A DNA stretch of 64,000 bases, taken from assembly GCA_041662585.1 (NCBI GenBank), contig JBAZSG010000001.1, forward strand, positions 66,381 to 130,380, written 5' to 3'. This document shows positions 29,553 through 58,970 of the stretch, piece by piece. The DNA comes from Patescibacteria group bacterium (GTDB lineage Bacteria; Patescibacteriota; Patescibacteriia; UBA1558; GWA2-36-10). Position numbers and translations under genes: made by a program. Position 1 is the stretch's first letter. Every line of letters begins with the position of its first letter. Under the pieces are notes generated by a model. The model made no database searches. It had not been told where the DNA came from and saw only the letters and a list, made by a program, of their open reading frames with translations.

Positions 29553-30479
29553 TTAGTAATTATGATATTCTCTTAAAACTTCTTTCAAATCACTAGCTTT
29601 TACTTTGATAATTTTATTCGAATCTATATTATTTAACCTTACCTGAGCAGCTACTTCATCCAATATATCAATAGCCTTATCAGGAAAAGCCCTATCTTTT
29701 ATTTTGGCCGTACCCTCTACTATTTGTTTTATAATATCACTGCCAATAGATACTTTATGATAATCCTCATAGCCCTTCTTCAGTGCCTCTAACATTTTTA
29801 TAGTAGTATTTTTATCTGGCTCTTCCATCAAATAGCCTTCAAATCTTCTAGTTAAAGTTTTATCTGGTTCTATATATTTTTTATACTCCTCTACTGTAGT
29901 GGTGCCAATCATTTGTAATTCACCCCTAGCTAAAGGAGCTTTGATAATATCATCGGCGTCAATAGAACCTTCGGTTCCTCCAGCTTGGACTATGGTATGA
30001 ATTTCATCCATAAATACTATAATACGCTTATTCATAGCAATAACATTATCAATCAGCTCTTTAAACCTTTTTTCAAAATCTCCTCTATACTTAGTACCCG
30101 CCAATACTGATGAAATATCAATTTTTAAAATTACTTTATCTGCTAAATTTTTAGGAACCTTACCTTTAGCTATGGCTAGGGCCAAGCCTTCGGCTATAGC
30201 TGTTTTACCAATACCAGCTCTACCAAATATAATAATATTGTTTTTTCTACGTCTTGATAATACTTGTATAACTTTTCTGATTTCTTTATCTCGACCTACT
30301 ACCGGATCCAATTTTCCTTCTCTAGCCAAAGCAGTTAGGTCTAAAGAAAAATTGTTTATAAAATTGGCAGAACCAAGATTGTGTTCTGTTTTATTATGTT
30401 TATTTTTGCCACGTAACAAATAAAACGCGGCTAAAATCAATATTAATATACTTAGAGCTAGAGGATAATCTAAAATCAT
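29553..30479 (-). CDS. Membrane-anchored AAA+ ATPase resembling the ClpA/ClpB D1 module only
   Basis: N-terminal TM helix, then LTALAREGKLDPVVGRDKEIRKVIQVLSRRRKNN, a variant Walker A GRAGIGKT, and a Walker B IIVFMDEIH. There is no N-domain and no D2. Confidence 0.65.
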   Translation of the reverse strand: MILDYPLALSILILILAAFYLLRGKNKHNKTEHNLGSANFINNFSLDLTALAREGKLDPVVGRDKEIRKVIQVLSRRRKNNIIIFGRAGIGKTAIAEGLALAIAKGKVPKNLADKVILKIDISSVLAGTKYRGDFEKRFKELIDNVIAMNKRIIVFMDEIHTIVQAGGTEGSIDADDIIKAPLARGELQMIGTTTVEEYKKYIEPDKTLTRRFEGYLMEEPDKNTTIKMLEALKKGYEDYHKVSIGSDIIKQIVEGTAKIKDRAFPDKAIDILDEVAAQVRLNNIDSNKIIKVKASDLKEVLREYHNY

Positions 30480-30481
30480 AA

Positions 30482-32581
30482 TTATAACCTATCGTAACTA
30501 TTAATTGATGGATTAATAGTTATCGTAAGCGTTTCTGTATCTGCACCAACAGAATTAAGAGCTGTTATTTCAACAGCATATGTACCAACTACACTGGCTG
30601 TACCGACGATTACGCCAGTTGATGTATCAAATGATAAGCCAGTTGGTAAATTACTTATTCTAAAATTAGTAGGGTTATTGGTAGCTGTAATAGTATATCT
30701 AAAACTACTTCCAACTGTAGCATTGACAGTTAATGGACTAGTTATTTCTGGTGCTGGTCCTCCTATAATTTCATTACATGGGATTTCGGTGATTGGCAAA
30801 GTCAAAAAAGTATCAGCATAGGGAGTACCATTAGTGTCATAATAATATATATTTGGCATATAATCTGTATAAGTTGTTTCTGGCAAACAGAGGGAATGTG
30901 TAATGCCTTGGGATTGTATATTTATTATACGTTCTGGAATTATTGCATGATTTTCATCATCAAAAACTTCTAAAGCAAATGGTGCACCTGGTTGATATTG
31001 TTGAGCAATATTAGAACTAAAATAATCATTAGTGTTCAAGTTTAGACCTCCAAATGGATAACCATAAGGGTTAAAATTAGCTATAAAATATATCTCCGGA
31101 TTGCTAATGCCGTCTGAATCTACTGGAATATTAACACTAGCATCATCAATACTACCGATATCTAGTTTATTAGCCAAAAGTTGATTACATGGTAAAGTGG
31201 TAGCTTTGTTGGTTAATAAACTATCAAAGTAGGGAGTACCATTGGTGTCATAATAATATAAAATATAATCACCCTCATTAATTAATGTCTCTGGTAAACA
31301 AAGAGTATGGATAGTTCCTTCAGATTGTATGTTTATTATACGCTCTGGAACCAGTGTTCCTACGTCACTACCAAAACTCAAAGCAAGTGGCGCACCTGGT
31401 TGATATTGTTGACCAATATTAGAACTAAAATAATTATTGCTACTCAAATTTAATTGTCCGAATGGATAACCATAAGGGGTAAAATTAGTCATAAAATATA
31501 TCTCGGGATCATTGATGCCGTCTGAATAAACTGGAATATTAACACTAGCATCATCAATACTACCAATATCTAGTTTATTAGCCAAAAGTTGATTACATGG
31601 TAAAGTGGTAGCTTTGTTGGTTAATAAACTATCAAAGTAGGGAGTACCATTGGTGTCATAATAATATAAAATATAATCACCCTCATTAATTAATGTCTCT
31701 GGTAAACAAAGAGTATGGATAGTTCCTTCAGATTGTATGTTTATTATACGCTCTGGAACCAGTGTTCCTACGTCACTACCAAAACTCAAAGCAAGTGGCG
31801 CACCTGGTTGATATTGTTGACCAATATTAGAACTAAAATAATTATTGCTACTCAAATTTAATTGTCCGAATGGATAACCATAAGGGGTAAAATTAGTCAT
31901 AAAATATATCTCGGGATCATTGATGCCGTCTGAATAAACTGGAATATTAACACTAGCATCATCAATACTACCAATATCTAGTTTATTAGCCAAAAGTTGA
32001 TTACATGGTAAAGTGGTAGCTTTGTTGGTTAATAAACTATCAAAGTATGGAGTACCATTGGTGTCATAATAGTATTTATTTGGAAAATAATCAGTATAGG
32101 TTGTCTCTGGTAAACAAAGAGTATGGATAGTTCCTTGAGATTGTACATTTATTATACGACTTGGGATTACTTCTCCTCCATTATCTGCCCAAAGTTGTAG
32201 AGCTAATGGAACGGTTGAAGTGGAATATTGAATATCCATTGGATCATATCCTCCACTTAAACTTAAATGGCCCAAAGATAAATTATCAGCTATAAACTCT
32301 ACACTAGGGTTGCTAATGCCGTCTGAATAAACTGGAATATTTACTGCAGCATCTTCAATACTTTTTAATACTAATGGACCTGTTTTTAAAATAGTTTCTC
32401 CAATTATGACAGGACCATTGACTGGACCACTAATTCTACTAACGGAAAAAGCCATAGCCATAAAATTAAGTCCTAACATAAATGAAGATACTATTAGTAA
32501 AGAAAGGGCTATCTGTTGCCCAGTAATTACCTTACTAACTATAGAAGTTTTATTTTGCACTTGCGTTTTTACTTGTTTCAT
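30482..32581 (-). CDS. Repeat-rich cell-surface protein with a C-terminal Ig-like (He_PIG-type) domain
   Basis: N-terminal signal-anchor, four ~136-aa repeats (CNQLLANKLDIGSIDDASVNIPVYSDGI...), C-terminal TGLSFDTSTGVIVGTA motif. Confidence 0.7.
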   Translation of the reverse strand: MKQVKTQVQNKTSIVSKVITGQQIALSLLIVSSFMLGLNFMAMAFSVSRISGPVNGPVIIGETILKTGPLVLKSIEDAAVNIPVYSDGISNPSVEFIADNLSLGHLSLSGGYDPMDIQYSTSTVPLALQLWADNGGEVIPSRIINVQSQGTIHTLCLPETTYTDYFPNKYYYDTNGTPYFDSLLTNKATTLPCNQLLANKLDIGSIDDASVNIPVYSDGINDPEIYFMTNFTPYGYPFGQLNLSSNNYFSSNIGQQYQPGAPLALSFGSDVGTLVPERIINIQSEGTIHTLCLPETLINEGDYILYYYDTNGTPYFDSLLTNKATTLPCNQLLANKLDIGSIDDASVNIPVYSDGINDPEIYFMTNFTPYGYPFGQLNLSSNNYFSSNIGQQYQPGAPLALSFGSDVGTLVPERIINIQSEGTIHTLCLPETLINEGDYILYYYDTNGTPYFDSLLTNKATTLPCNQLLANKLDIGSIDDASVNIPVDSDGISNPEIYFIANFNPYGYPFGGLNLNTNDYFSSNIAQQYQPGAPFALEVFDDENHAIIPERIINIQSQGITHSLCLPETTYTDYMPNIYYYDTNGTPYADTFLTLPITEIPCNEIIGGPAPEITSPLTVNATVGSSFRYTITATNNPTNFRISNLPTGLSFDTSTGVIVGTASVVGTYAVEITALNSVGADTETLTITINPSINSYDRL
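31141..32046. repeat. Tandem direct repeat, 408-bp unit, about 2.2 near-identical copies inside the surface-protein gene
   Basis: The string catcatcaatactacc(g/a)atatctagtttattagcc recurs at 31141, 31549 and 31957 with a nearly identical intervening sequence. Confidence 0.85.
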
Positions 32582-32664: not shown

Positions 32665-32693
32665 TTGACAGTCAAAAATAATCAGCGTATAAT
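32665..32693 (+). promoter_or_regulatory. Consensus sigma-70 promoter (TTGACA-17-TATAAT)
   Basis: ttgaca gtcaaaaataatcagcg tataat. The -35 sits inside the palindrome tttgacagtcaaa. Confidence 0.6.
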
Positions 32694-32703
32694 ATCTATT
32701 AAT

Positions 32704-32775
32704 ATGCTGAAAAGAATTATTCAACATAAAAAACACCACAAAGATTACTACTTAAAATTTTTAAAAAATATATAA
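32704..32775 (+). other. Candidate leader peptide ORF (MLKRIIQHKKHHKDYYLKFLKNI, 23 aa)
   Basis: The ATG lies about 4 nt from the predicted TSS. The TAA stop directly abuts the terminator stem. Confidence 0.3.
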
Positions 32776-32803
32776 GTCGTTCCGAAAGGAACGATTTTTT
32801 TAT
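32776..32803 (+). terminator. Intrinsic terminator/attenuator in the leader of the AsnRS-core gene
   Basis: gtcgttcc-gaaa-ggaacgat followed by ttttttta, 25 nt upstream of the ATG at 32828. Confidence 0.55.
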
Positions 32804-32827
32804 AAACTAATAATTAAATAAAAACCT

Positions 32828-33832
32828 ATGGACAAAGCAAAAACAGCCCGCCTTGAGGGCTTCGTACTCAAGGAAGCTGAAGATTTTTTTCGCAAGCAGG
32901 GTTTTATCCCTTTATTTCCACCCAAAATTGTCAGAGCCTCTGGCGCTTGTGAAAATATAAATACTCTTTTTGAAGTCAGTGTTGATAAAAATCATAAATG
33001 GTTTGATAGGAATTCTTACCTTTCACAAACTGGTCAGCTCTATCTTGAAGCTATGGTACCAGAACTCAAAAAAGTCTATTGTGTAGGACCATCATTTAGA
33101 GCTGAGCCCAAAATAGACTCCCGACATTTAACAGAATTTACTATGTTGGAAATTGAATTTGCTGGTAACTTTGAAGATCTCTTAGCCTATGAAGAAACAC
33201 TTATTCATCATGTAGCCAAAAAAGTAGTGCAACATCCCAAAGTCAAAGAGGATTTTGGCTTGAGTGACCAAGACATACAACGCTTAAATAAATGTCCAAA
33301 TAAATTCCAGCGCTTTACCTATGATCAGGCCATTACCAAGCTTCAAGAAATTGGTGAAGCTATAAAATGGGGAGATGACATAAATAGTAATAGAGAAAAA
33401 TTGCTTCTAGCTACGGTTGATAATCAACCGTTTTTTATTACCCACTATCCTGACCCGATGTATGAAGAACATAAAAATATTGAAGTAGAAAAATTCTTCA
33501 ATATGCTACCATCAAAAGACAATCCTGGTCGTGTACTCAGTTCTGATCTTATATTACCCTTTGGTGGTGAAGCGGTGGGAGCAGCTGCTCGTGTACATAT
33601 ATTGGATGAATTGGTAAAACGTTTAAAAAATTCCAAAATGTATAAACGCCTACAAGAAAAAGGCGGTGATATCAGTGATTTTGAATGGTATATAAATCAT
33701 ATAGAAAAAAATGGAGCTGTACCGCATGCTGGTTGTGGTTTTGGCATGTCCAGAATACTACAGTATATTAGTGGCAAAACAGACATTACTGAAGCAGTCA
33801 CTTTTCCTTCTAATAAAGGCCTTTTGATATAA
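32828..33832 (+). CDS. AsnRS-like class II catalytic core without an anticodon-binding domain (putative archaeal-type asparagine synthetase A-like paralog)
   Basis: 334 aa. QTGQLYLEA, motif 2 GPSFRAEPKIDSRHLTEFTMLEIE, motif 3 GCGFGMSRIL. No N-terminal OB fold. Confidence 0.65.
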   Translation: MDKAKTARLEGFVLKEAEDFFRKQGFIPLFPPKIVRASGACENINTLFEVSVDKNHKWFDRNSYLSQTGQLYLEAMVPELKKVYCVGPSFRAEPKIDSRHLTEFTMLEIEFAGNFEDLLAYEETLIHHVAKKVVQHPKVKEDFGLSDQDIQRLNKCPNKFQRFTYDQAITKLQEIGEAIKWGDDINSNREKLLLATVDNQPFFITHYPDPMYEEHKNIEVEKFFNMLPSKDNPGRVLSSDLILPFGGEAVGAAARVHILDELVKRLKNSKMYKRLQEKGGDISDFEWYINHIEKNGAVPHAGCGFGMSRILQYISGKTDITEAVTFPSNKGLLI

Positions 33833-46605: not shown

Positions 46606-47352
46606 TTAAATTTTAATAATTTCTAAAGATAAACTCTCTAGTGGCAGACCTTGATACTGTTTTTTGCTAATCTCTTTATTCTCACCCAAAATATTTACCT
46701 GTAAATCAGCTTGTTCAACTATGCTAATATAATCATCCTTTAAAAGCGCTCCACCAACACAACCAGCTATTAAGTCTTCGTTGTTTCTTTGGTCTTCGGA
46801 TAATTCTTCTAGTAAAACAATATCCGAAATATACATTTTGCCTCCGGTTTTTAAAACCCTATACGCTTCTTGAAATACTTTTAATTTGTCAGGTGCTAAG
46901 TTGATAACACAATTGCTGATTATAACATCTATAGAATTATCAGCTATGGGTAAATTTTCAATTTCTCCCCATCTAAACTCTGTATTTTTATAACTATATT
47001 TTTCAGCCAATGTTTTGGCTTTATCAATCATCTCCTCTGTCATATCTACCCCAATCACCTTGCCGGTATCGCCAACTTTTTTAGCCGCCAAAAAAGCATC
47101 AAAGCCAGCACCGCAACCCAAATCCAAAACAGTATCCCCAACTTTTATTTTACTAATAGCAATGGGATTGCCACAACCCAAACCAAGGTTGGCTTCTGGT
47201 GCAACCGATATCTGCTCGTCAGAATAACCAATACTTTTGGAAATTACTTCACTGTTATCTGAACTACAACTGCACTGACAACCACAGCTGAGCTTGGTGG
47301 CTATATTGGCATAACTTTTTTTAACAACTTGTTTTATTTTATCGGCTTTCAT
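46606..47352 (-). CDS. ArsM/UbiE-family SAM-dependent methyltransferase (arsenite methyltransferase-like)
   Basis: N-terminal Cys cluster, [11 protein letters not shown] motif I, further Cys at GCVGGA. Confidence 0.7.
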
Positions 47353-53026: not shown

Positions 53027-54058
53027 TTAATAGCCACCAACCACACAAATTCCTCTATTTGTAGCTTCGTCTAATGGATTTTCAATAGTTTCTCCGTCTA
53101 CTATATAAACATTTGTACCTTCACCAGTTGTTAAATCTATATCAACCTCCGCTTCATAATTACCTGAGGACATATCTCTATACATCTTAACAACTGCTGT
53201 CTTTAAATCATCATCAGCCAAAGAACAGGACAAAAGACCATTGTTTGGTAAATCTTCTTCCGTTTTACATACACCATTTTCCATTGCTACCACCCTCATT
53301 TCTAATTGTTCCCCAGTTAAAGGGTGCATAAAATTACAAGAAAATCCGACATTACACTGCTCTAAATTATTGGCAAAATCAACATAACAATTGGATTGTT
53401 CTGTAATATCTAAGTCTGCAATTTCTTCACTTGAAATTTCCTCTTCTGCCTCAACATCAATTCTAGCTAAATCACCATTGGTAATTCCTAGTGATAAAAA
53501 TCTCATAATCTGATAAGCAGAGGGACCATCTGGCATATAATATCTTTTATTATTGTCTGGATTTATATACCATGCCTCACCATTTGTTTCTACTTGTAAA
53601 AGTATTTTACCTTTTAATCTATTTGCTAAATTTAAATCATAAGATAAATTACCAGCTCCTAGAGGATTATAATTTGCTTTTACTTCTGTGCCATCATCAT
53701 AGCCATCGTTGTCTGTATCACTATTATATTTATCTGTTCCCAAACCATCTTCTAATTTGTCACATAGGCCATCGTTGTCTGAATCTAAACATTCAAACCT
53801 ATCTTCAAAACCTATTGGTATTTTATTTATATCACTATTACTAACACCCAATCCCAAATCTCTCATCATCCCATAAGCAGCATCACCATCTTTCATATAC
53901 ATTCTTTGACCATCTTCTGGTTTTACATACCAAGCTTCGCCATTGGCTTCTACTTGTAAAAGAATTTTTCCTCTCAATCTTATTTCTGCTGGAGAGGCTT
54001 GAGATAATATTGGTAATACCAATATTATCAAACTAAAGGTTAATAATAATTTTTTCAT
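53027..54058 (-). CDS. Secreted protein with two ~100-aa repeats and thrombospondin type-3-like Asp-rich Ca-binding repeats
   Basis: Signal peptide, duplicated GKILLQVE.NGEAWY...R.YM.DG module, DSDNDGLCDKLEDGLGTDKYNSDTDNDGYDDGTE. Confidence 0.55.
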   Translation of the reverse strand: MKKLLLTFSLIILVLPILSQASPAEIRLRGKILLQVEANGEAWYVKPEDGQRMYMKDGDAAYGMMRDLGLGVSNSDINKIPIGFEDRFECLDSDNDGLCDKLEDGLGTDKYNSDTDNDGYDDGTEVKANYNPLGAGNLSYDLNLANRLKGKILLQVETNGEAWYINPDNNKRYYMPDGPSAYQIMRFLSLGITNGDLARIDVEAEEEISSEEIADLDITEQSNCYVDFANNLEQCNVGFSCNFMHPLTGEQLEMRVVAMENGVCKTEEDLPNNGLLSCSLADDDLKTAVVKMYRDMSSGNYEAEVDIDLTTGEGTNVYIVDGETIENPLDEATNRGICVVGGY

Positions 54059-54326
54059 AATTTTATTTTAAATTTTAATATGTTTATTATACCACTTCTT
54101 TTTTCAAACAAAAAACCATTCCTTTTGAAATGATTCTTTAATGGGAATTATTTTCTAATTTTAGAATGTTGGAACTAGATATTGACAAAATGACTAATTT
54201 CTATTACTTTAATATATTCAAAAATCTAACTTTTGAATAAGTTCATTGACATCACCACCTGCCTAGAAATAGTGCAGATAAAACCACAAAGATCCGTAGT
54301 ATAGGATCAGTAAAAGGAGAAAGGCC

Positions 54327-55655
54327 ATGAAGGAAGTGTTTGTCACTGATCTAATCAACAACGGATCCCTCAATACCGAGGTCCAGTTGCAAGGTTGGAT
54401 CAAGAATCGCCGACACCACGGAAAACTCGTTTTTCTTGATGTCTGTGATTCCACTGGTATCATCCAGGTTGTCATAAACCGCGAAACAATTGATGAGGAC
54501 AGTTTCAATCTGGCAAAGAAAGCCAACCTCGAAACCTCTGTCAACATCAGGGGCACCCTGATCAACGGCAGTGGCAAGAGCCAACTCGACAGGGAGATCG
54601 TCGTACATGAGTTCAACATCATCGGAGAGGCAGAATCCATCTCGCCTGCTATCCGAGCGGATGATATTGACATCTCTAATCCTGGAAATGCTGATCACCT
54701 ACTGAAAAACCGCCACCTCTACATCCGCAATCCGCAGATCATCGCGGTCATGATTTTCAGGCACAGGATCATGCATTTCATCCGTGAGTGGTTCGTGAAG
54801 AACCGCTACATTGAAATCACAGCTCCGGTCCTGACCATGCTACCGCTCTACTCGGATGGCAGTGTCCTGCCTGTCGACATCAAAGGTGAGAAAGCCTACC
54901 TCACTCAGTGCGTGGGATTTTATTTGGAAGCTTCTGTTCATGCTCTGGAACGCGTCTACAACATGGGACCGTCTTTCAGAGGAGAAGAGAGCAGGAGTCT
55001 CCGACACCTGATGGAATACTGGCACATCAAAGGAGAGGCTGCCTTCGCCGATTTGGAAGATGCTATCCACACCGTGGAAAGCATCTTTAGTGAAACGGTG
55101 GAATTCTGCGAAAGGGAATGCCAAGATATCTTTGCTACCCTGGGCACTGAAATTCACACTGAAGGCAAGCTCATTCCATTCCCTCGCATCAGCTACCGCG
55201 AAGCCGGCGAGATGCTGAAAGCTGCCGGACTGCCTTTCGAGTTTGGTACTAGTCTTAGTACTACCGACGAGGAATTCCTGGCGGCGCAGTTCGACCGACC
55301 ATTCTGGGTTGTCGGCATTCCCCGCAAGATCGAACCATTCCCCTACGTCATTGACCCTGACGATCCTGAAATCACTAGAACAGCCGATCTCATCGCTTCC
55401 CGAGGATTCGGAGAGCTTCTCGGCGTCGCTGAGAAAATTTCCAACCTCGAAAGCCTTGACGAGAGACTCCGTGAAAAAGGCAAAGCTGGAGACGAAAACC
55501 ACGAATGGCTACGGGACATCAGAAAATACGGCTGTGTCCCGCACATTGGTTTTGGCATGGGTGTTGAACGTCTGCTCAGGTGGCTTCTAGACATCAGGCA
55601 CGTTCGTGATACTATGCCATTTCCACGAATCTTCCGTCGTAGAATTTACCCATAA
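54327..55655 (+). CDS. asnS: Asparaginyl-tRNA synthetase-like class IIb aaRS (about 50% GC, foreign composition)
   Basis: N-terminal OB-fold anticodon-binding domain, motif 2 GPSFRGEESRSLRHLMEYWHIKGE, motif 3 GFGMGVERLL. AAGGAG RBS 7 nt upstream. Confidence 0.8.
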   Translation: MKEVFVTDLINNGSLNTEVQLQGWIKNRRHHGKLVFLDVCDSTGIIQVVINRETIDEDSFNLAKKANLETSVNIRGTLINGSGKSQLDREIVVHEFNIIGEAESISPAIRADDIDISNPGNADHLLKNRHLYIRNPQIIAVMIFRHRIMHFIREWFVKNRYIEITAPVLTMLPLYSDGSVLPVDIKGEKAYLTQCVGFYLEASVHALERVYNMGPSFRGEESRSLRHLMEYWHIKGEAAFADLEDAIHTVESIFSETVEFCERECQDIFATLGTEIHTEGKLIPFPRISYREAGEMLKAAGLPFEFGTSLSTTDEEFLAAQFDRPFWVVGIPRKIEPFPYVIDPDDPEITRTADLIASRGFGELLGVAEKISNLESLDERLREKGKAGDENHEWLRDIRKYGCVPHIGFGMGVERLLRWLLDIRHVRDTMPFPRIFRRRIYP

Positions 55656-55676
55656 AAATAGAAAGAGGTAACAACC

Positions 55677-56984
55677 GTGAAAAGAATACTAATCGGCAAT
55701 CTCCAACAGATGCCTAGTGGCCAGATGGTCACCATCTGTGGCTGGTTGCATTCTCTGCGCAAGCAGAAGAATATGATCTTCGCAGTGGTCAGAGACTATA
55801 CTGGTCTTGTCCAGTTGTCCTACTTCCGCGGTGACAACCAGTTGAATATCGAGAAAGCCCTCGAACAGCTTACTGTCGAATCAGCAATCATCGTCACCGG
55901 TGAACTGCTGACCAATGAAGCGGTCAAGCTCGGTGGCAAGGAAATCAAGCCAGAGACAATCAAGATCGTCTCGCTGGCCGAATCTCCCCTGCCGCTTTCG
56001 GACAAATCGCCCTTGGACACTCGTCTGGACTGGCGTTTCCTCGACCTTCGCAAGGAGAAACAACAACTCATTATGCGAGTCCAGACTGTTGCCGAACATG
56101 CCATGCGCCTGTTCTGGCAACAAGAAGGATTCGTCGAGATACACTCTCCCAAACTGATGGGAAGCTCCAGCGAATCCGGCAGTGAACTGTTCCGTCTGCC
56201 CTACTTCGGCGGCGAAGCCTTCTTGGCCCAGTCACCTCAGTTTTTCAAGCAGATGGCTATGGCTGCCGGCCTAGAACGCGTTTTCGAGATTGGTCCGGTG
56301 TTCCGAGCCAACAAGTCCCACACTGTCCGCCATGACACGGAATTTACCAGCGTGGATGTCGAGTTCTCCTGGATCGAGTCCCATCACGAAGTGATGGAGC
56401 TCGAGGAAAGGTGGCTTTGTTTCGTCATTGCCTACATCAAGGACAAACTTGGTGAGCAGATCACCAATCTCTTCGGTGTTGAAGTGGTTGTTCCTCAACT
56501 TCCTTTCCCTAGAGTGACGATGGTCGAAGCTCAGAACATCGTCGCTCAACGAGGTCATATTTGCGAACGCAAAGATGACCTCGACCCCGAAGGCGAAAGG
56601 CAACTCAGCTCCTACATCATGGGGAAGTTCGGACACCAAATGGTGTTCGTAACTGACTACCCCACCGAAGTTAGACCTTTCTATCACATGAGGCCGACAC
56701 ACAACCCCGAACTGACCAACAGCTTCGACCTTCTGTGGAAGGGGCTCGAAGTCACCACTGGGGCTCAGCGAGAACATCGTTACGATGTCCTGCGTCAACA
56801 AGCCGTCGACAAGGGTCTCGAACTGGAACCCATCCGATTCTATCTGGACTTCTTCCGCTACGGCATGCCGCCGCACGGAGGATACGGTTTCGGTCTCACC
56901 CGTATGCTTATGGTACTCCTCGGACTATCCAATGTCCGCGAGGTCACCTACGTATATCGTGGTGTCAACAGACTGACTCCCTAA
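55677..56984 (+). CDS. aspS: Aspartyl-tRNA synthetase, archaeal/eukaryal short type (about 50% GC)
   Basis: OB fold, QSPQFFKQ AspRS signature, GPVFRANKSHTVRHDTEFT, GGYGFGLTRM. Confidence 0.8.
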   Translation: MKRILIGNLQQMPSGQMVTICGWLHSLRKQKNMIFAVVRDYTGLVQLSYFRGDNQLNIEKALEQLTVESAIIVTGELLTNEAVKLGGKEIKPETIKIVSLAESPLPLSDKSPLDTRLDWRFLDLRKEKQQLIMRVQTVAEHAMRLFWQQEGFVEIHSPKLMGSSSESGSELFRLPYFGGEAFLAQSPQFFKQMAMAAGLERVFEIGPVFRANKSHTVRHDTEFTSVDVEFSWIESHHEVMELEERWLCFVIAYIKDKLGEQITNLFGVEVVVPQLPFPRVTMVEAQNIVAQRGHICERKDDLDPEGERQLSSYIMGKFGHQMVFVTDYPTEVRPFYHMRPTHNPELTNSFDLLWKGLEVTTGAQREHRYDVLRQQAVDKGLELEPIRFYLDFFRYGMPPHGGYGFGLTRMLMVLLGLSNVREVTYVYRGVNRLTP

Positions 56985-57001
56985 CATAGGAGACACGACC
57001 C

Positions 57002-57046
57002 AAGAGGGGCCTAGCATCATTTGCCGGGCCCCTCTTCTTTTTTTAT
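57002..57046 (+). terminator. GC-rich intrinsic terminator after aspS
   Basis: aagaggggcc...ggcccctctt followed by a T-run. Confidence 0.75.
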
Positions 57047-57050
57047 AAAC

Positions 57051-57800
57051 TTATAATTCTGATATAGCGTGAAATTTATTTTCTTTTTTCAACTTATGTT
57101 TAAAGTATTTTCCATCTTTCCAATATATTTTGTATACATTAGCAAATTTCCTAGAACTAATAATTCTAAACATGCCATCAACTATTTCAATTGCGGCACA
57201 ATTTTCTGCAGCTAGAGCAAAACCAGAAATTTTTTTCATCCTTTCTTTTATATCAATTTGTCTATCCTTCTCAAAATCATAATGAGGAGAAAATAAAGCA
57301 TTGACTATACCTAAGCCCGAGACAGTTATATATGGGACTTTTTTATTAGTAAATTTTTTTGCATCACTCTGACCATATTTAAACCAACAAATAGCGCCAG
57401 CACTCAAACCAGAAAGAACTATCCCTTTACTATACGCTTCTATAAGTAGCCTATCTACTCCAAATTTTCGCCAAGTTTTCATCATCTTTAAAGTGTTGCC
57501 TCCTCCTACATATATAACGTCCGCATTGAGAATTTTATTTTTCAATTCTTTTTTTGTATATTTATTTTTTATTAAAAGCAAAGATGAAACTTTAGCTCCT
57601 AATTTTCCCCCAAAATAATTATTAATTACATCTATATACCCTTGAGCGTCTGAACTAGCAGTAGGAATAAAAAGCAAATTTGGACTCTTTTTGCCCGAGA
57701 GCTTGATAACCTCTTTATCTATTGCTAATGTCTCTATTTTATAGCCAGGTCGGCCTATTTCTCCACCACCGATAGCTATTATTTTTTTTGTCTTTTCCAT
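57051..57800 (-). CDS. Peptidase S51 family (dipeptidase E/cyanophycinase-like)
   Basis: IGGG...LFIPTAS...YVGGGNT...SGLSAGA. Host-like AT-rich composition. Confidence 0.7.
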   Translation of the reverse strand: MEKTKKIIAIGGGEIGRPGYKIETLAIDKEVIKLSGKKSPNLLFIPTASSDAQGYIDVINNYFGGKLGAKVSSLLLIKNKYTKKELKNKILNADVIYVGGGNTLKMMKTWRKFGVDRLLIEAYSKGIVLSGLSAGAICWFKYGQSDAKKFTNKKVPYITVSGLGIVNALFSPHYDFEKDRQIDIKERMKKISGFALAAENCAAIEIVDGMFRIISSRKFANVYKIYWKDGKYFKHKLKKENKFHAISEL

Positions 57801-57947
57801 AAAAAAATTATAGCAAAAAATCGCTATTATTCAAATATGTAACTATAAAGCCTAAAACTTTACAAAATGTAACAATCATGATAATTATAGTAATAATTAA
57901 AAAAATTTTAATGTACCTTGAAACCTTCATCATTTAGGAGGGATACC

Positions 57948-58970
57948 ATGTCTGAAGCCAGAGACAACATAGAGCACGGCCTCACTATCACCAAAAGAGA
58001 GCTGGCTAAACGTGATGAAATTCTCGCCTACCTGCCCGAAATCATCATAGACGCGCATGCTCACGCCGGACTTGAAGAGCAGGTCGGTCAGATTGACCCC
58101 AGAACCATGCAGCACATGATGACGACATTCCCCTTCTTCAGTCTAGAAGACTCGGCCCGAATGAACAGCCTATTCTTTACGGGAAAACTGGTGCATACCT
58201 TGCGCTTTGCCATCCCGTGGAGAGGCATAGATCATCGGTCTGCTAACCAGTACCTGCTGAAAAACAGTCCACCCTCAGATAGGGTTGCCCTTTGTGGCAT
58301 CCCTGATGACCCGGACTATACAATAAACCAATTGTGCAGAAAAAAATACTGCGCACTAAAAATGTATGTCAGATACTTTGAACCCCCGGCAACCAGAATA
58401 TACGAATTTTTTCTGCCTGAGATACTGGAAGAAGCGCAAGTTCTGGACATTCCAATAATACTGCATCTGCCGGCTATGATCACCAAGTGTATTGATGATT
58501 TGGATAGGTGCTTATCGGACTTTCCCAAGCTACGGGTAGTGCTAGCTCACCTGGGCCTACCTCATCTACCCATACCAGGATTAGCAGAAGCTTACGATCA
58601 ATTCGCGAGCTACCCTCAAGTGTCCATGGATACGGCAATGATCCCTTCCAAAGAAGTGGTCGCTCTGGCTCTAAAAGCTTTCGGCCACGATCGAATAATG
58701 TACGGTTCCGATCAACCTCTGAACATACTAAGGCAAGTCGTCTATCACCACCCTGAAAAGGGAGAAAGAATAGTGACGCATCGTCGCTACCACTGGAGTG
58801 ATTCACTAGAACACGAACAATACGGCCACCTGGCTGTTGGTGCCGTGCACTCGCATTGGCAATGCTTAGAATCTCTGCTGGAAGGAATCAAACAAATATT
58901 CCCCAGCTCCGAAGCTGAAGCGCGTCGCAATATATTCTGCGCTAATGCGCGGAAAATGTTCGACTTCTAA
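57948..58970 (+). CDS. Amidohydrolase-2 (TIM-barrel metal-dependent hydrolase) family protein (about 50% GC)
   Basis: IIDAHAHAG, VLAHLG, MYGSDQP motifs. AGGAGG RBS. Start taken at MSEARD. Confidence 0.7.
   Translation: MSEARDNIEHGLTITKRELAKRDEILAYLPEIIIDAHAHAGLEEQVGQIDPRTMQHMMTTFPFFSLEDSARMNSLFFTGKLVHTLRFAIPWRGIDHRSANQYLLKNSPPSDRVALCGIPDDPDYTINQLCRKKYCALKMYVRYFEPPATRIYEFFLPEILEEAQVLDIPIILHLPAMITKCIDDLDRCLSDFPKLRVVLAHLGLPHLPIPGLAEAYDQFASYPQVSMDTAMIPSKEVVALALKAFGHDRIMYGSDQPLNILRQVVYHHPEKGERIVTHRRYHWSDSLEHEQYGHLAVGAVHSHWQCLESLLEGIKQIFPSSEAEARRNIFCANARKMFDF

Follow-up and report, generated by a model that had tools for sequence, protein, structure and literature searches.

A 23-codon reading frame ending on an intrinsic terminator before an AsnRS-like gene of Patescibacteria: a predicted ribosome-dependent transcription attenuator

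A complete transcription unit of about 100 nt stands directly in front of an AsnRS-like gene in a 64,000-nt stretch of a Patescibacteria genome (the window; all coordinates are positions in it, and its genome has about 32% GC). The unit is composed of a promoter, a reading frame of 23 codons and an intrinsic terminator, and no further unit of this kind was found when both strands of the window were scanned. What does such a unit do in front of this gene? It may control the gene, or it may be a small gene of its own. A sequence-only reading of the locus had proposed ribosome-mediated attenuation with an asparagine codon near the stop, or else an independent small RNA. We found no description of this leader, or of asparagine synthetase regulation in these bacteria (CPR), in the literature searched, and the leader family is absent from Rfam 15.

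The coordinates of the features are collected in Table 1. The perfect TTGACA-17-TATAAT promoter, which had been called rare, was read in the sequence and is the single 12/12 consensus match in the 64 kb window. With one mismatch allowed, four matches were found against 1.6 expected, no strong enrichment of the class. The palindrome TTTGACAGTCAAA is present around the -35 hexamer as the sequence-only reading had it, but close relatives carry GCCAAA, ACCTAA or GCTTTT in its place, so it is probably incidental.

The leader ATG lies 10 nt past the -10 box, as had been proposed, and the same spacing was found in all 13 close relatives. The predicted 5' UTR is only about 2-4 nt long and has no Shine-Dalgarno (SD) sequence. 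SD sequences are near-absent in the window (4/60 ORFs of at least 120 aa), and at several genes TATAAT stands exactly 6 nt before the ATG, for example at 47352(-), 47459(+), 45297(-), 57800(-) and 62936(-), which marks these genes as true leaderless mRNAs. The leader has 10 nt where the clear leaderless genes of the genome have 6 nt, and given this spacing we assume, for the model below, that initiation takes place on a 2-4-nt leader.

The reading frame itself is present as it had been described. Its TAA, which had been placed beside a strong terminator, overlaps the first two pairs of the stem of a 10-bp hairpin with a T7 run. The hairpin alone folds at -12.7 kcal/mol; the leader RNA of about 104 nt has a folding z of -4.75 against shuffles, nearly all of it owed to this hairpin. 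The distance from the first base of UAA to the last U of the tract is 28 nt in the window. Among relatives the sequence of the stem varies and its pairing is retained. Hairpin-plus-T-run terminators are common 3' of genes in the window (19 plus-strand and 41 minus-strand cases).

The ATG of the structural gene, which had been placed 25 nt further on, is there, but the distance after the last T is 26 nt. The spacer between them contains -10-like hexamers. A candidate internal promoter in it was rejected, since its -35 positions fall in the hairpin and match at 2/6.

Table 1. Features of the leader and the gene behind it, in window coordinates
Feature	Position	Strand	Remarks
-35 hexamer TTGACA	32665..32670	+	part of the sole 12/12 sigma-70 consensus match in the window
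-10 hexamer TATAAT	32688..32693	+	17-nt spacer from -35
Predicted transcription start	32700..32702	+	inferred from the usual 7-8 nt between -10 box and start
Leader ORF, 23 codons and TAA, MLKRIIQHKKHHKDYYLKFLKNI	32704..32775	+	read directly; ORF at the same place in CPR relatives
U-rich then A-rich tract in the ORF, TTAAAATTTTT then AAAAAA	32752..32768	+	kept in close relatives
TAA of the leader ORF	32773..32775	+	
Intrinsic terminator	32774..32801	+	10-bp stem, GAAA loop, T7 run
5' arm of the stem, AAGTCGTTCC	32774..32783	+	
GAAA loop	32784..32787	+	
3' arm of the stem	32788..32797	+	
T7 run	32795..32801	+	
Spacer, 26 nt, A/T-rich	32802..32827	+	without SD sequence or convincing promoter
Regulated gene, 334 aa, class IIb aaRS catalytic core	32828..33832	+	AsnRS-like, without anticodon-binding domain

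The protein encoded behind the spacer, here called the paralog, was matched by Pfam tRNA-synt_2 at 1.4e-48. The NCBIfam asnS models gave 210-220 bits, under their cut-offs, and the model of archaeal AsnA (asparagine synthetase A) gave 111 bits; the best solved relative is the Pyrococcus AsnRS 1x54. Judged from these matches, the paralog may be an asparagine synthetase. Homologues are widespread in Patescibacteria and are labelled Patescibacteria, Parcubacteria, Komeilibacteria or Uhrbacteria. Inside the coding sequence of the paralog, at 33413-33431 on the plus strand, we also observed a terminator-like hairpin with a T-run (ACGGTTGATAATCAACCGT TTTTT), which could be chance or a further translation-dependent termination point.

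Within the window the paralog has 30% identity to a divergent full-length AsnRS-like protein (54327-55655) and 26% identity to a non-discriminating AspRS of archaeal type (55710-56984). The two genes stand side by side, together with a gene at 57948-58970, in a GC-rich island at 54000-58000 with 42-46% GC inside the 32% GC genome. Two genes of the island carry strong SD sequences, in contrast to the remaining window, and the island may have been gained by horizontal transfer.

For comparison we collected relatives of the paralog from genomes and metagenomes, together with contigs encoding close homologues. The promoter-ORF-terminator unit was found upstream of the paralog in dozens of Patescibacteria (CPR) genomes at 44-87% protein identity. 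In these loci a strong promoter (11-12/12 in most) is followed after 7-10 nt from the -10 box by the leader ATG, then by an ORF of 14-60 codons with one to three intrinsic terminators, and then by the paralog. A terminator was called in 43/47 distinct curated leaders.

The unit was searched for by an automated test, which took the best promoter upstream of a terminator and then the first ATG located 5-12 nt after the -10 box; the chance expectation came from dinucleotide-preserving shuffles. An ATG at the right distance was found in 35/51 CPR loci against 6.8 expected, and in 33/51, against 2.1 expected, its frame stayed open as far as the first terminator; the other two frames were open over the same spans in 4/35 and 13/35. 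Part of the open frame reflects the A-rich composition of the leaders, which also makes Lys their most enriched residue (20%), though the shuffles keep the dinucleotide content. Through the same pipeline the unit was found in 0/49 archaeal or other homologue loci, and only 3/49 of those had any terminator within 150 nt upstream. The genes flanking the unit vary between CPR loci, so leader and paralog travel together as one unit. Lack of conservation of the leader ORF in relatives, along with constitutive read-through, had been named as evidence against attenuation; the ORF is conserved far above chance. These comparisons indicate that the unit is a real control element, conserved across Patescibacteria before the AsnRS-like gene.

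In related loci a 9-mer DnaA box stands directly against the -35 of the leader promoter, as TTATCCACA or TGTGGATAA and in either orientation. Boxes of at least 8/9 were revealed in 16/38 loci, where control windows had them in 2.4% (p = 2e-16), and most keep a fixed distance; in loci such as L086, L089, L013, L004, L057, L083, L006 and L096 the box ends 43-52 nt upstream of the leader ATG. The window has no such box, and the best match upstream of 32665 is 6/9. The distribution suggests DnaA-dependent control of the leader promoter in many CPR lineages.

The position of the leader stop relative to the terminator follows a rule: in none of the 43 leaders with a called terminator does the stop precede the first stem by more than 4 nt. 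It abuts or overlaps the stem base (0-3 nt) in 8 leaders, lies inside the hairpin, often in the loop (e.g. CCGTTAAAACGG), in 10, lies downstream of the first hairpin in 24, and stands at an offset of 4 nt in one; none has it further upstream. As control we took ordinary ORFs of at least 120 aa from the same CPR loci with a terminator nearby, of which only 12/85 (14%) obey the 4-nt rule, with a median distance of 33 nt. In the lineages with tandem terminators, the leader ORF crosses the first terminator and usually the second too. In L025, L110, L115 and L081 its stop and the paralog start share the sequence ATGA, and in group B it stops 4-17 nt before that start. Spacers of this length, or a stop overlapping the ATG, leave no room for a promoter of the paralog in those lineages.

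Two further arrangements were observed among the relatives. In L096 (1339-2493) the leader ORF crosses the terminator and is fused in frame with the paralog into one ORF of 384 aa. In L087 and L093 a second very short ORF (e.g. MATNSRLFFKKLI in L087) apparently crosses a third terminator between leader and paralog, pointing to leader ORFs in series in some lineages.

In E. coli, termination efficiency fell from about 90% to less than 10% when the distance of a stop codon to the terminator was cut from 28 to 5 bp; the translating ribosome prevents the hairpin from folding, and the effect is gone beyond about 27-30 nt (PMC4824070). The stop-terminator rule is thus what is expected if the leader ribosome is meant to disable the terminator. 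The occlusion of the terminator by a ribosome, which the sequence-only reading had proposed, gains strong comparative support, as the ORF, its promoter-proximal start and the overlap of stop and terminator are all conserved. We consider it fairly likely that the element is a near-leaderless, pyrBI-like, ribosome-dependent transcription attenuator without an antiterminator. From sequence alone we infer where transcription starts, that the leader is translated, that the polymerase pauses, which way the switch works and what drives it in the cell.

The proposed attenuator would work as follows. The very strong promoter would fire about 3 nt upstream of the AUG, with the polymerase starting near 32701, and a ribosome would bind the 5' AUG without SD, like at the leaderless genes of the genome. 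The U-rich tract at 32752-32762, a candidate pause site, probably makes the polymerase pause, so that the ribosome catches up. A closely following ribosome would still be at or before the UAA at 32773 while the polymerase transcribes 32774-32801; it would cover the 5' arm at 32774-32783, the hairpin would be blocked and the polymerase would proceed into the AsnRS-like gene. With no ribosome, or a lagging one, the hairpin would form and an RNA of about 100 nt would be released, the main product of the OFF state. In lineages whose leader stop is close to the paralog ATG or on it, re-initiation by this ribosome probably also serves the paralog, which lacks an SD. Active translation is thus predicted to switch the gene on. 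The most probable input is the overall state of translation, in initiation and elongation, and not asparagine as such; it could be general translation capacity, NTP-dependent pausing, or a factor that acts on group-specific RNA motifs. The switch may also be only a constitutive damper.

A wider form of this model, which we regard as rather unlikely, would make the unit a phylum-wide checkpoint of transcription-translation coupling, at which the AsnRS-like gene would be transcribed only if a pioneering 70S ribosome has loaded on the 5' end and stays with RNA polymerase through one to three terminators, and to which many lineages add a DnaA box. If true, it would tie an aaRS-derived enzyme to the state of translation and to replication initiation. 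The conserved N-terminal peptide, or the frame-independent RNA motifs, might in addition sense a metabolite.

The leaders also contain nucleotide motifs whose conservation does not follow the frame. TTAAAATTTTT is retained in 13/14 close relatives, L169 being the exception; some leaders translate it as L-K-F and others as V-K-I-F, but none in the frame that would make its TAA a stop. Another motif, the 9-mer AAAGGTCGA(A), was found in L101-L117, L025, L096 and L018 just before the terminator or about 30 nt before the paralog start; nothing in the window clearly corresponds to it. All three leader frames are used (2, 4 and 5 loci) with the ORF open throughout, a behaviour that marks the 9-mer as an RNA- or DNA-level element. 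That motifs are kept across different frames while the ORF stays open argues for selection on translation itself, not on peptide sequence. In the leader L012, also starting MLKKII, an inserted GC hairpin separates TTAAAA from TTTTTT precisely at their junction, and a hairpin abuts the motif in L003, L013, L005, L057 and L004 (z about -1.7 to -2.6); the TTAAAA/TTTTTT motif is probably a remnant of an upstream first terminator whose hairpin is gone in the window.

Such motifs hint at an extra RNA- or protein-level input outside the attenuator model, and they keep alive, as an additional layer, the idea of a structured RNA leader (riboswitch-like or protein-binding) in which the terminator is the expression platform and the ORF is secondary. 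Besides the frame-independent TTAAAATTTTT and AAAGGTCGA, hairpins stand before the U-rich motif in several lineages, and in the window a small 5' hairpin takes up the leader AUG, with a pairing probability of 0.98 that 1% of shuffles match. However, sequestration of the start codon as a general mechanism was rejected, since pairing of the AUG across the family was 0.42 vs 0.38 (p = 0.55). No Rfam family was found at gathering thresholds in the window and 20 related loci, or at permissive thresholds in three leaders; the matches were solely sub-threshold and driven by the terminator hairpin. No common aptamer-like core is seen across lineages, and in the window's subgroup the A/U-rich stretch from ATG to terminator has little fold of its own. 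The absence of an antiterminator, described below, also speaks against this explanation, and it leaves the maintained ORF and the stop-terminator rule unexplained. We consider it unlikely as the main function.

In the same subgroup we also tried a long-range helix of GGCAG at the 5' end with CUGCU before the U-tract. It was rejected: RNAfold does not predict it, most of its 5' arm would precede the expected start of transcription, and in the window it has a mismatch and A-U pairs alone.

The unit could also be an independent small gene, making an abundant RNA of about 100 nt or a small basic peptide, with the paralog expressed separately or by incidental read-through. Its own complete promoter and terminator fit this explanation, and terminated leader RNAs are reported to act in trans in other bacteria (PMC6614838). 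For a peptide speaks the codon periodicity of codons 2-10 (MLK-IIQHKK) in the window's subgroup, where pN/pS was 0.21 against 1.96 and 1.03 in the other frames in a small sample of 7 close relatives. This periodicity supports translation and hints at some constraint on the peptide, which could itself matter. Peptide selection as a family-wide feature was rejected, however, as it is confined to codons 2-10 of this subgroup. We found no frame-specific constraint in group C, peptide-level selection was likewise not seen in a group D pair, and six representative leader peptides gave no Pfam or NCBIfam match. The leader peptides of different lineages are unrelated and have no conserved residues at fixed stall-site distances, as looked for in a test for arrest peptides of the TnaC/SpeFL type, and their C-termini are often mere translated terminator (e.g. 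...RRGDFF, ...GWGFF). Against an RNA alone stands the reading frame, which is kept far above chance, even after frame-shifting changes. The unit is always attached to the paralog though the neighbours change; in many lineages the spacer is too short for a promoter, and in some the leader stop overlaps the paralog ATG. A small RNA of about 100 nt as the primary function, the alternative in the sequence-only reading, is not favoured by these observations, and we regard an independent gene as quite unlikely.

An asparagine-specific attenuator, in which a ribosome starved for Asn-tRNA stalls before the stop, masks the terminator and induces an asparagine-making enzyme, is very improbable: the window leader does have an AAT codon (32767-32769) two codons before its TAA, the downstream gene is AsnRS-like and possibly an asparagine synthetase, and the second, full-length AsnRS-like gene of the window would be a consumer of free Asn, but Asn is neither enriched in the leaders (5.4% of their residues; the paralog proteins have 4.2% and the two alternative frames 6.7-7.6%) nor conserved, with an Asn codon in the ribosome-protective window, placed to cover the 5' arm, in only 9/43 leaders, several leaders without any Asn, and the codon near the stop lost in the closest relatives (L001 ends ...FFQKT*, L081 continues ...FFQKIYIV).

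The alternative antiterminator fold, for which a search had been advised, was not found either. Each leader was folded from its start to the end of the terminator 5' arm; pairing of the arm with upstream sequence gained a mean of -1.0 kcal/mol (z = +0.2 vs shuffled upstream sequence), where the mean terminator energy across the leaders is -11.4 kcal/mol. Without an antiterminator, the element is not an attenuator of the trp/his type.

The favoured reading, a ribosome-dependent attenuator without antiterminator, has several known counterparts. UTP-sensitive transcription-translation coupling underlies the pyrBI and rph-pyrE attenuators of E. coli. The pyrBI leader (see the discussion of Roland et al. 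in PMC4824070) shares with the CPR unit a leader ORF reaching up to or through an intrinsic terminator just before the structural gene, the lack of an antiterminator helix, U-rich tracts before the terminator, and a read-through that needs a ribosome physically trailing the polymerase, which is predicted here. The CPR leader differs in being nearly leaderless and without SD, relatives have up to three tandem terminators per ORF, and the regulated gene is aaRS-like, not a pyrimidine gene, in the lineage Patescibacteria.

With the trp, his, leu, thr and pheA attenuators the unit shares a short leader ORF, a strong promoter and a terminator before a gene related to amino-acid metabolism. Unlike these, the CPR leader has no 2:3 antiterminator and no run of cognate codons, and its stop sits on the terminator, not upstream of segment 2, so that efficient translation would be expected to cause read-through, contrary to the classical logic. 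T-box leaders precede asnS and asnA in Firmicutes and are likewise terminator-ended leaders before Asn-tRNA-related genes. The CPR leader is much shorter, appears to be translated, and showed no Rfam T-box match, specifier loop or antiterminator.

Leaderless poly-Cys short ORFs of mycobacteria attenuate cysteine operons (bioRxiv 10.1101/834739). As predicted for the near-leaderless CPR ORF, each is a first cistron with an effect in cis on downstream genes through the position of the ribosome. However, their poly-Cys tract senses Cys, and they control translation through a duplex that sequesters the RBS, whereas the CPR leader has no cognate codon tract, its target is the terminator and the downstream gene has no SD. 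Ribosome-dependent attenuators are already known as a kind; what distinguishes the present one is the near-leaderless start, the absence of antiterminator and regulatory codons, the up to three terminators within one ORF, the SD-poor Patescibacteria as hosts and the aaRS-derived enzyme downstream. The stop-on-terminator rule of all 43 leaders is a natural counterpart of the distance-dependence engineered in E. coli.

Patescibacteria are mostly uncultured, and to our knowledge almost nothing is known of gene regulation in them. The leader provides a concrete, testable example of transcription-translation coupling on leaderless messages in this group. With this leader the AsnRS-like paralog stands out as a gene under tight control, driven from among the strongest promoters of the genome, which would argue for an important role of the enzyme.

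Upstream of the leader, and divergently transcribed, lies a gene for a surface-type He_PIG protein of 699 aa (30482-32581, minus strand). Inside this gene we observed a 408-bp tandem repeat (30963-32158, 2.9 copies, 93% identity), corresponding to repeated modules of 136 aa. The ORF of 308 aa at 29553-30479 on the minus strand was matched by the ClpB/ClpA models solely over their first AAA module, at about positions 140-400, and from this match it is read as a stand-alone or truncated Clp ATPase domain.
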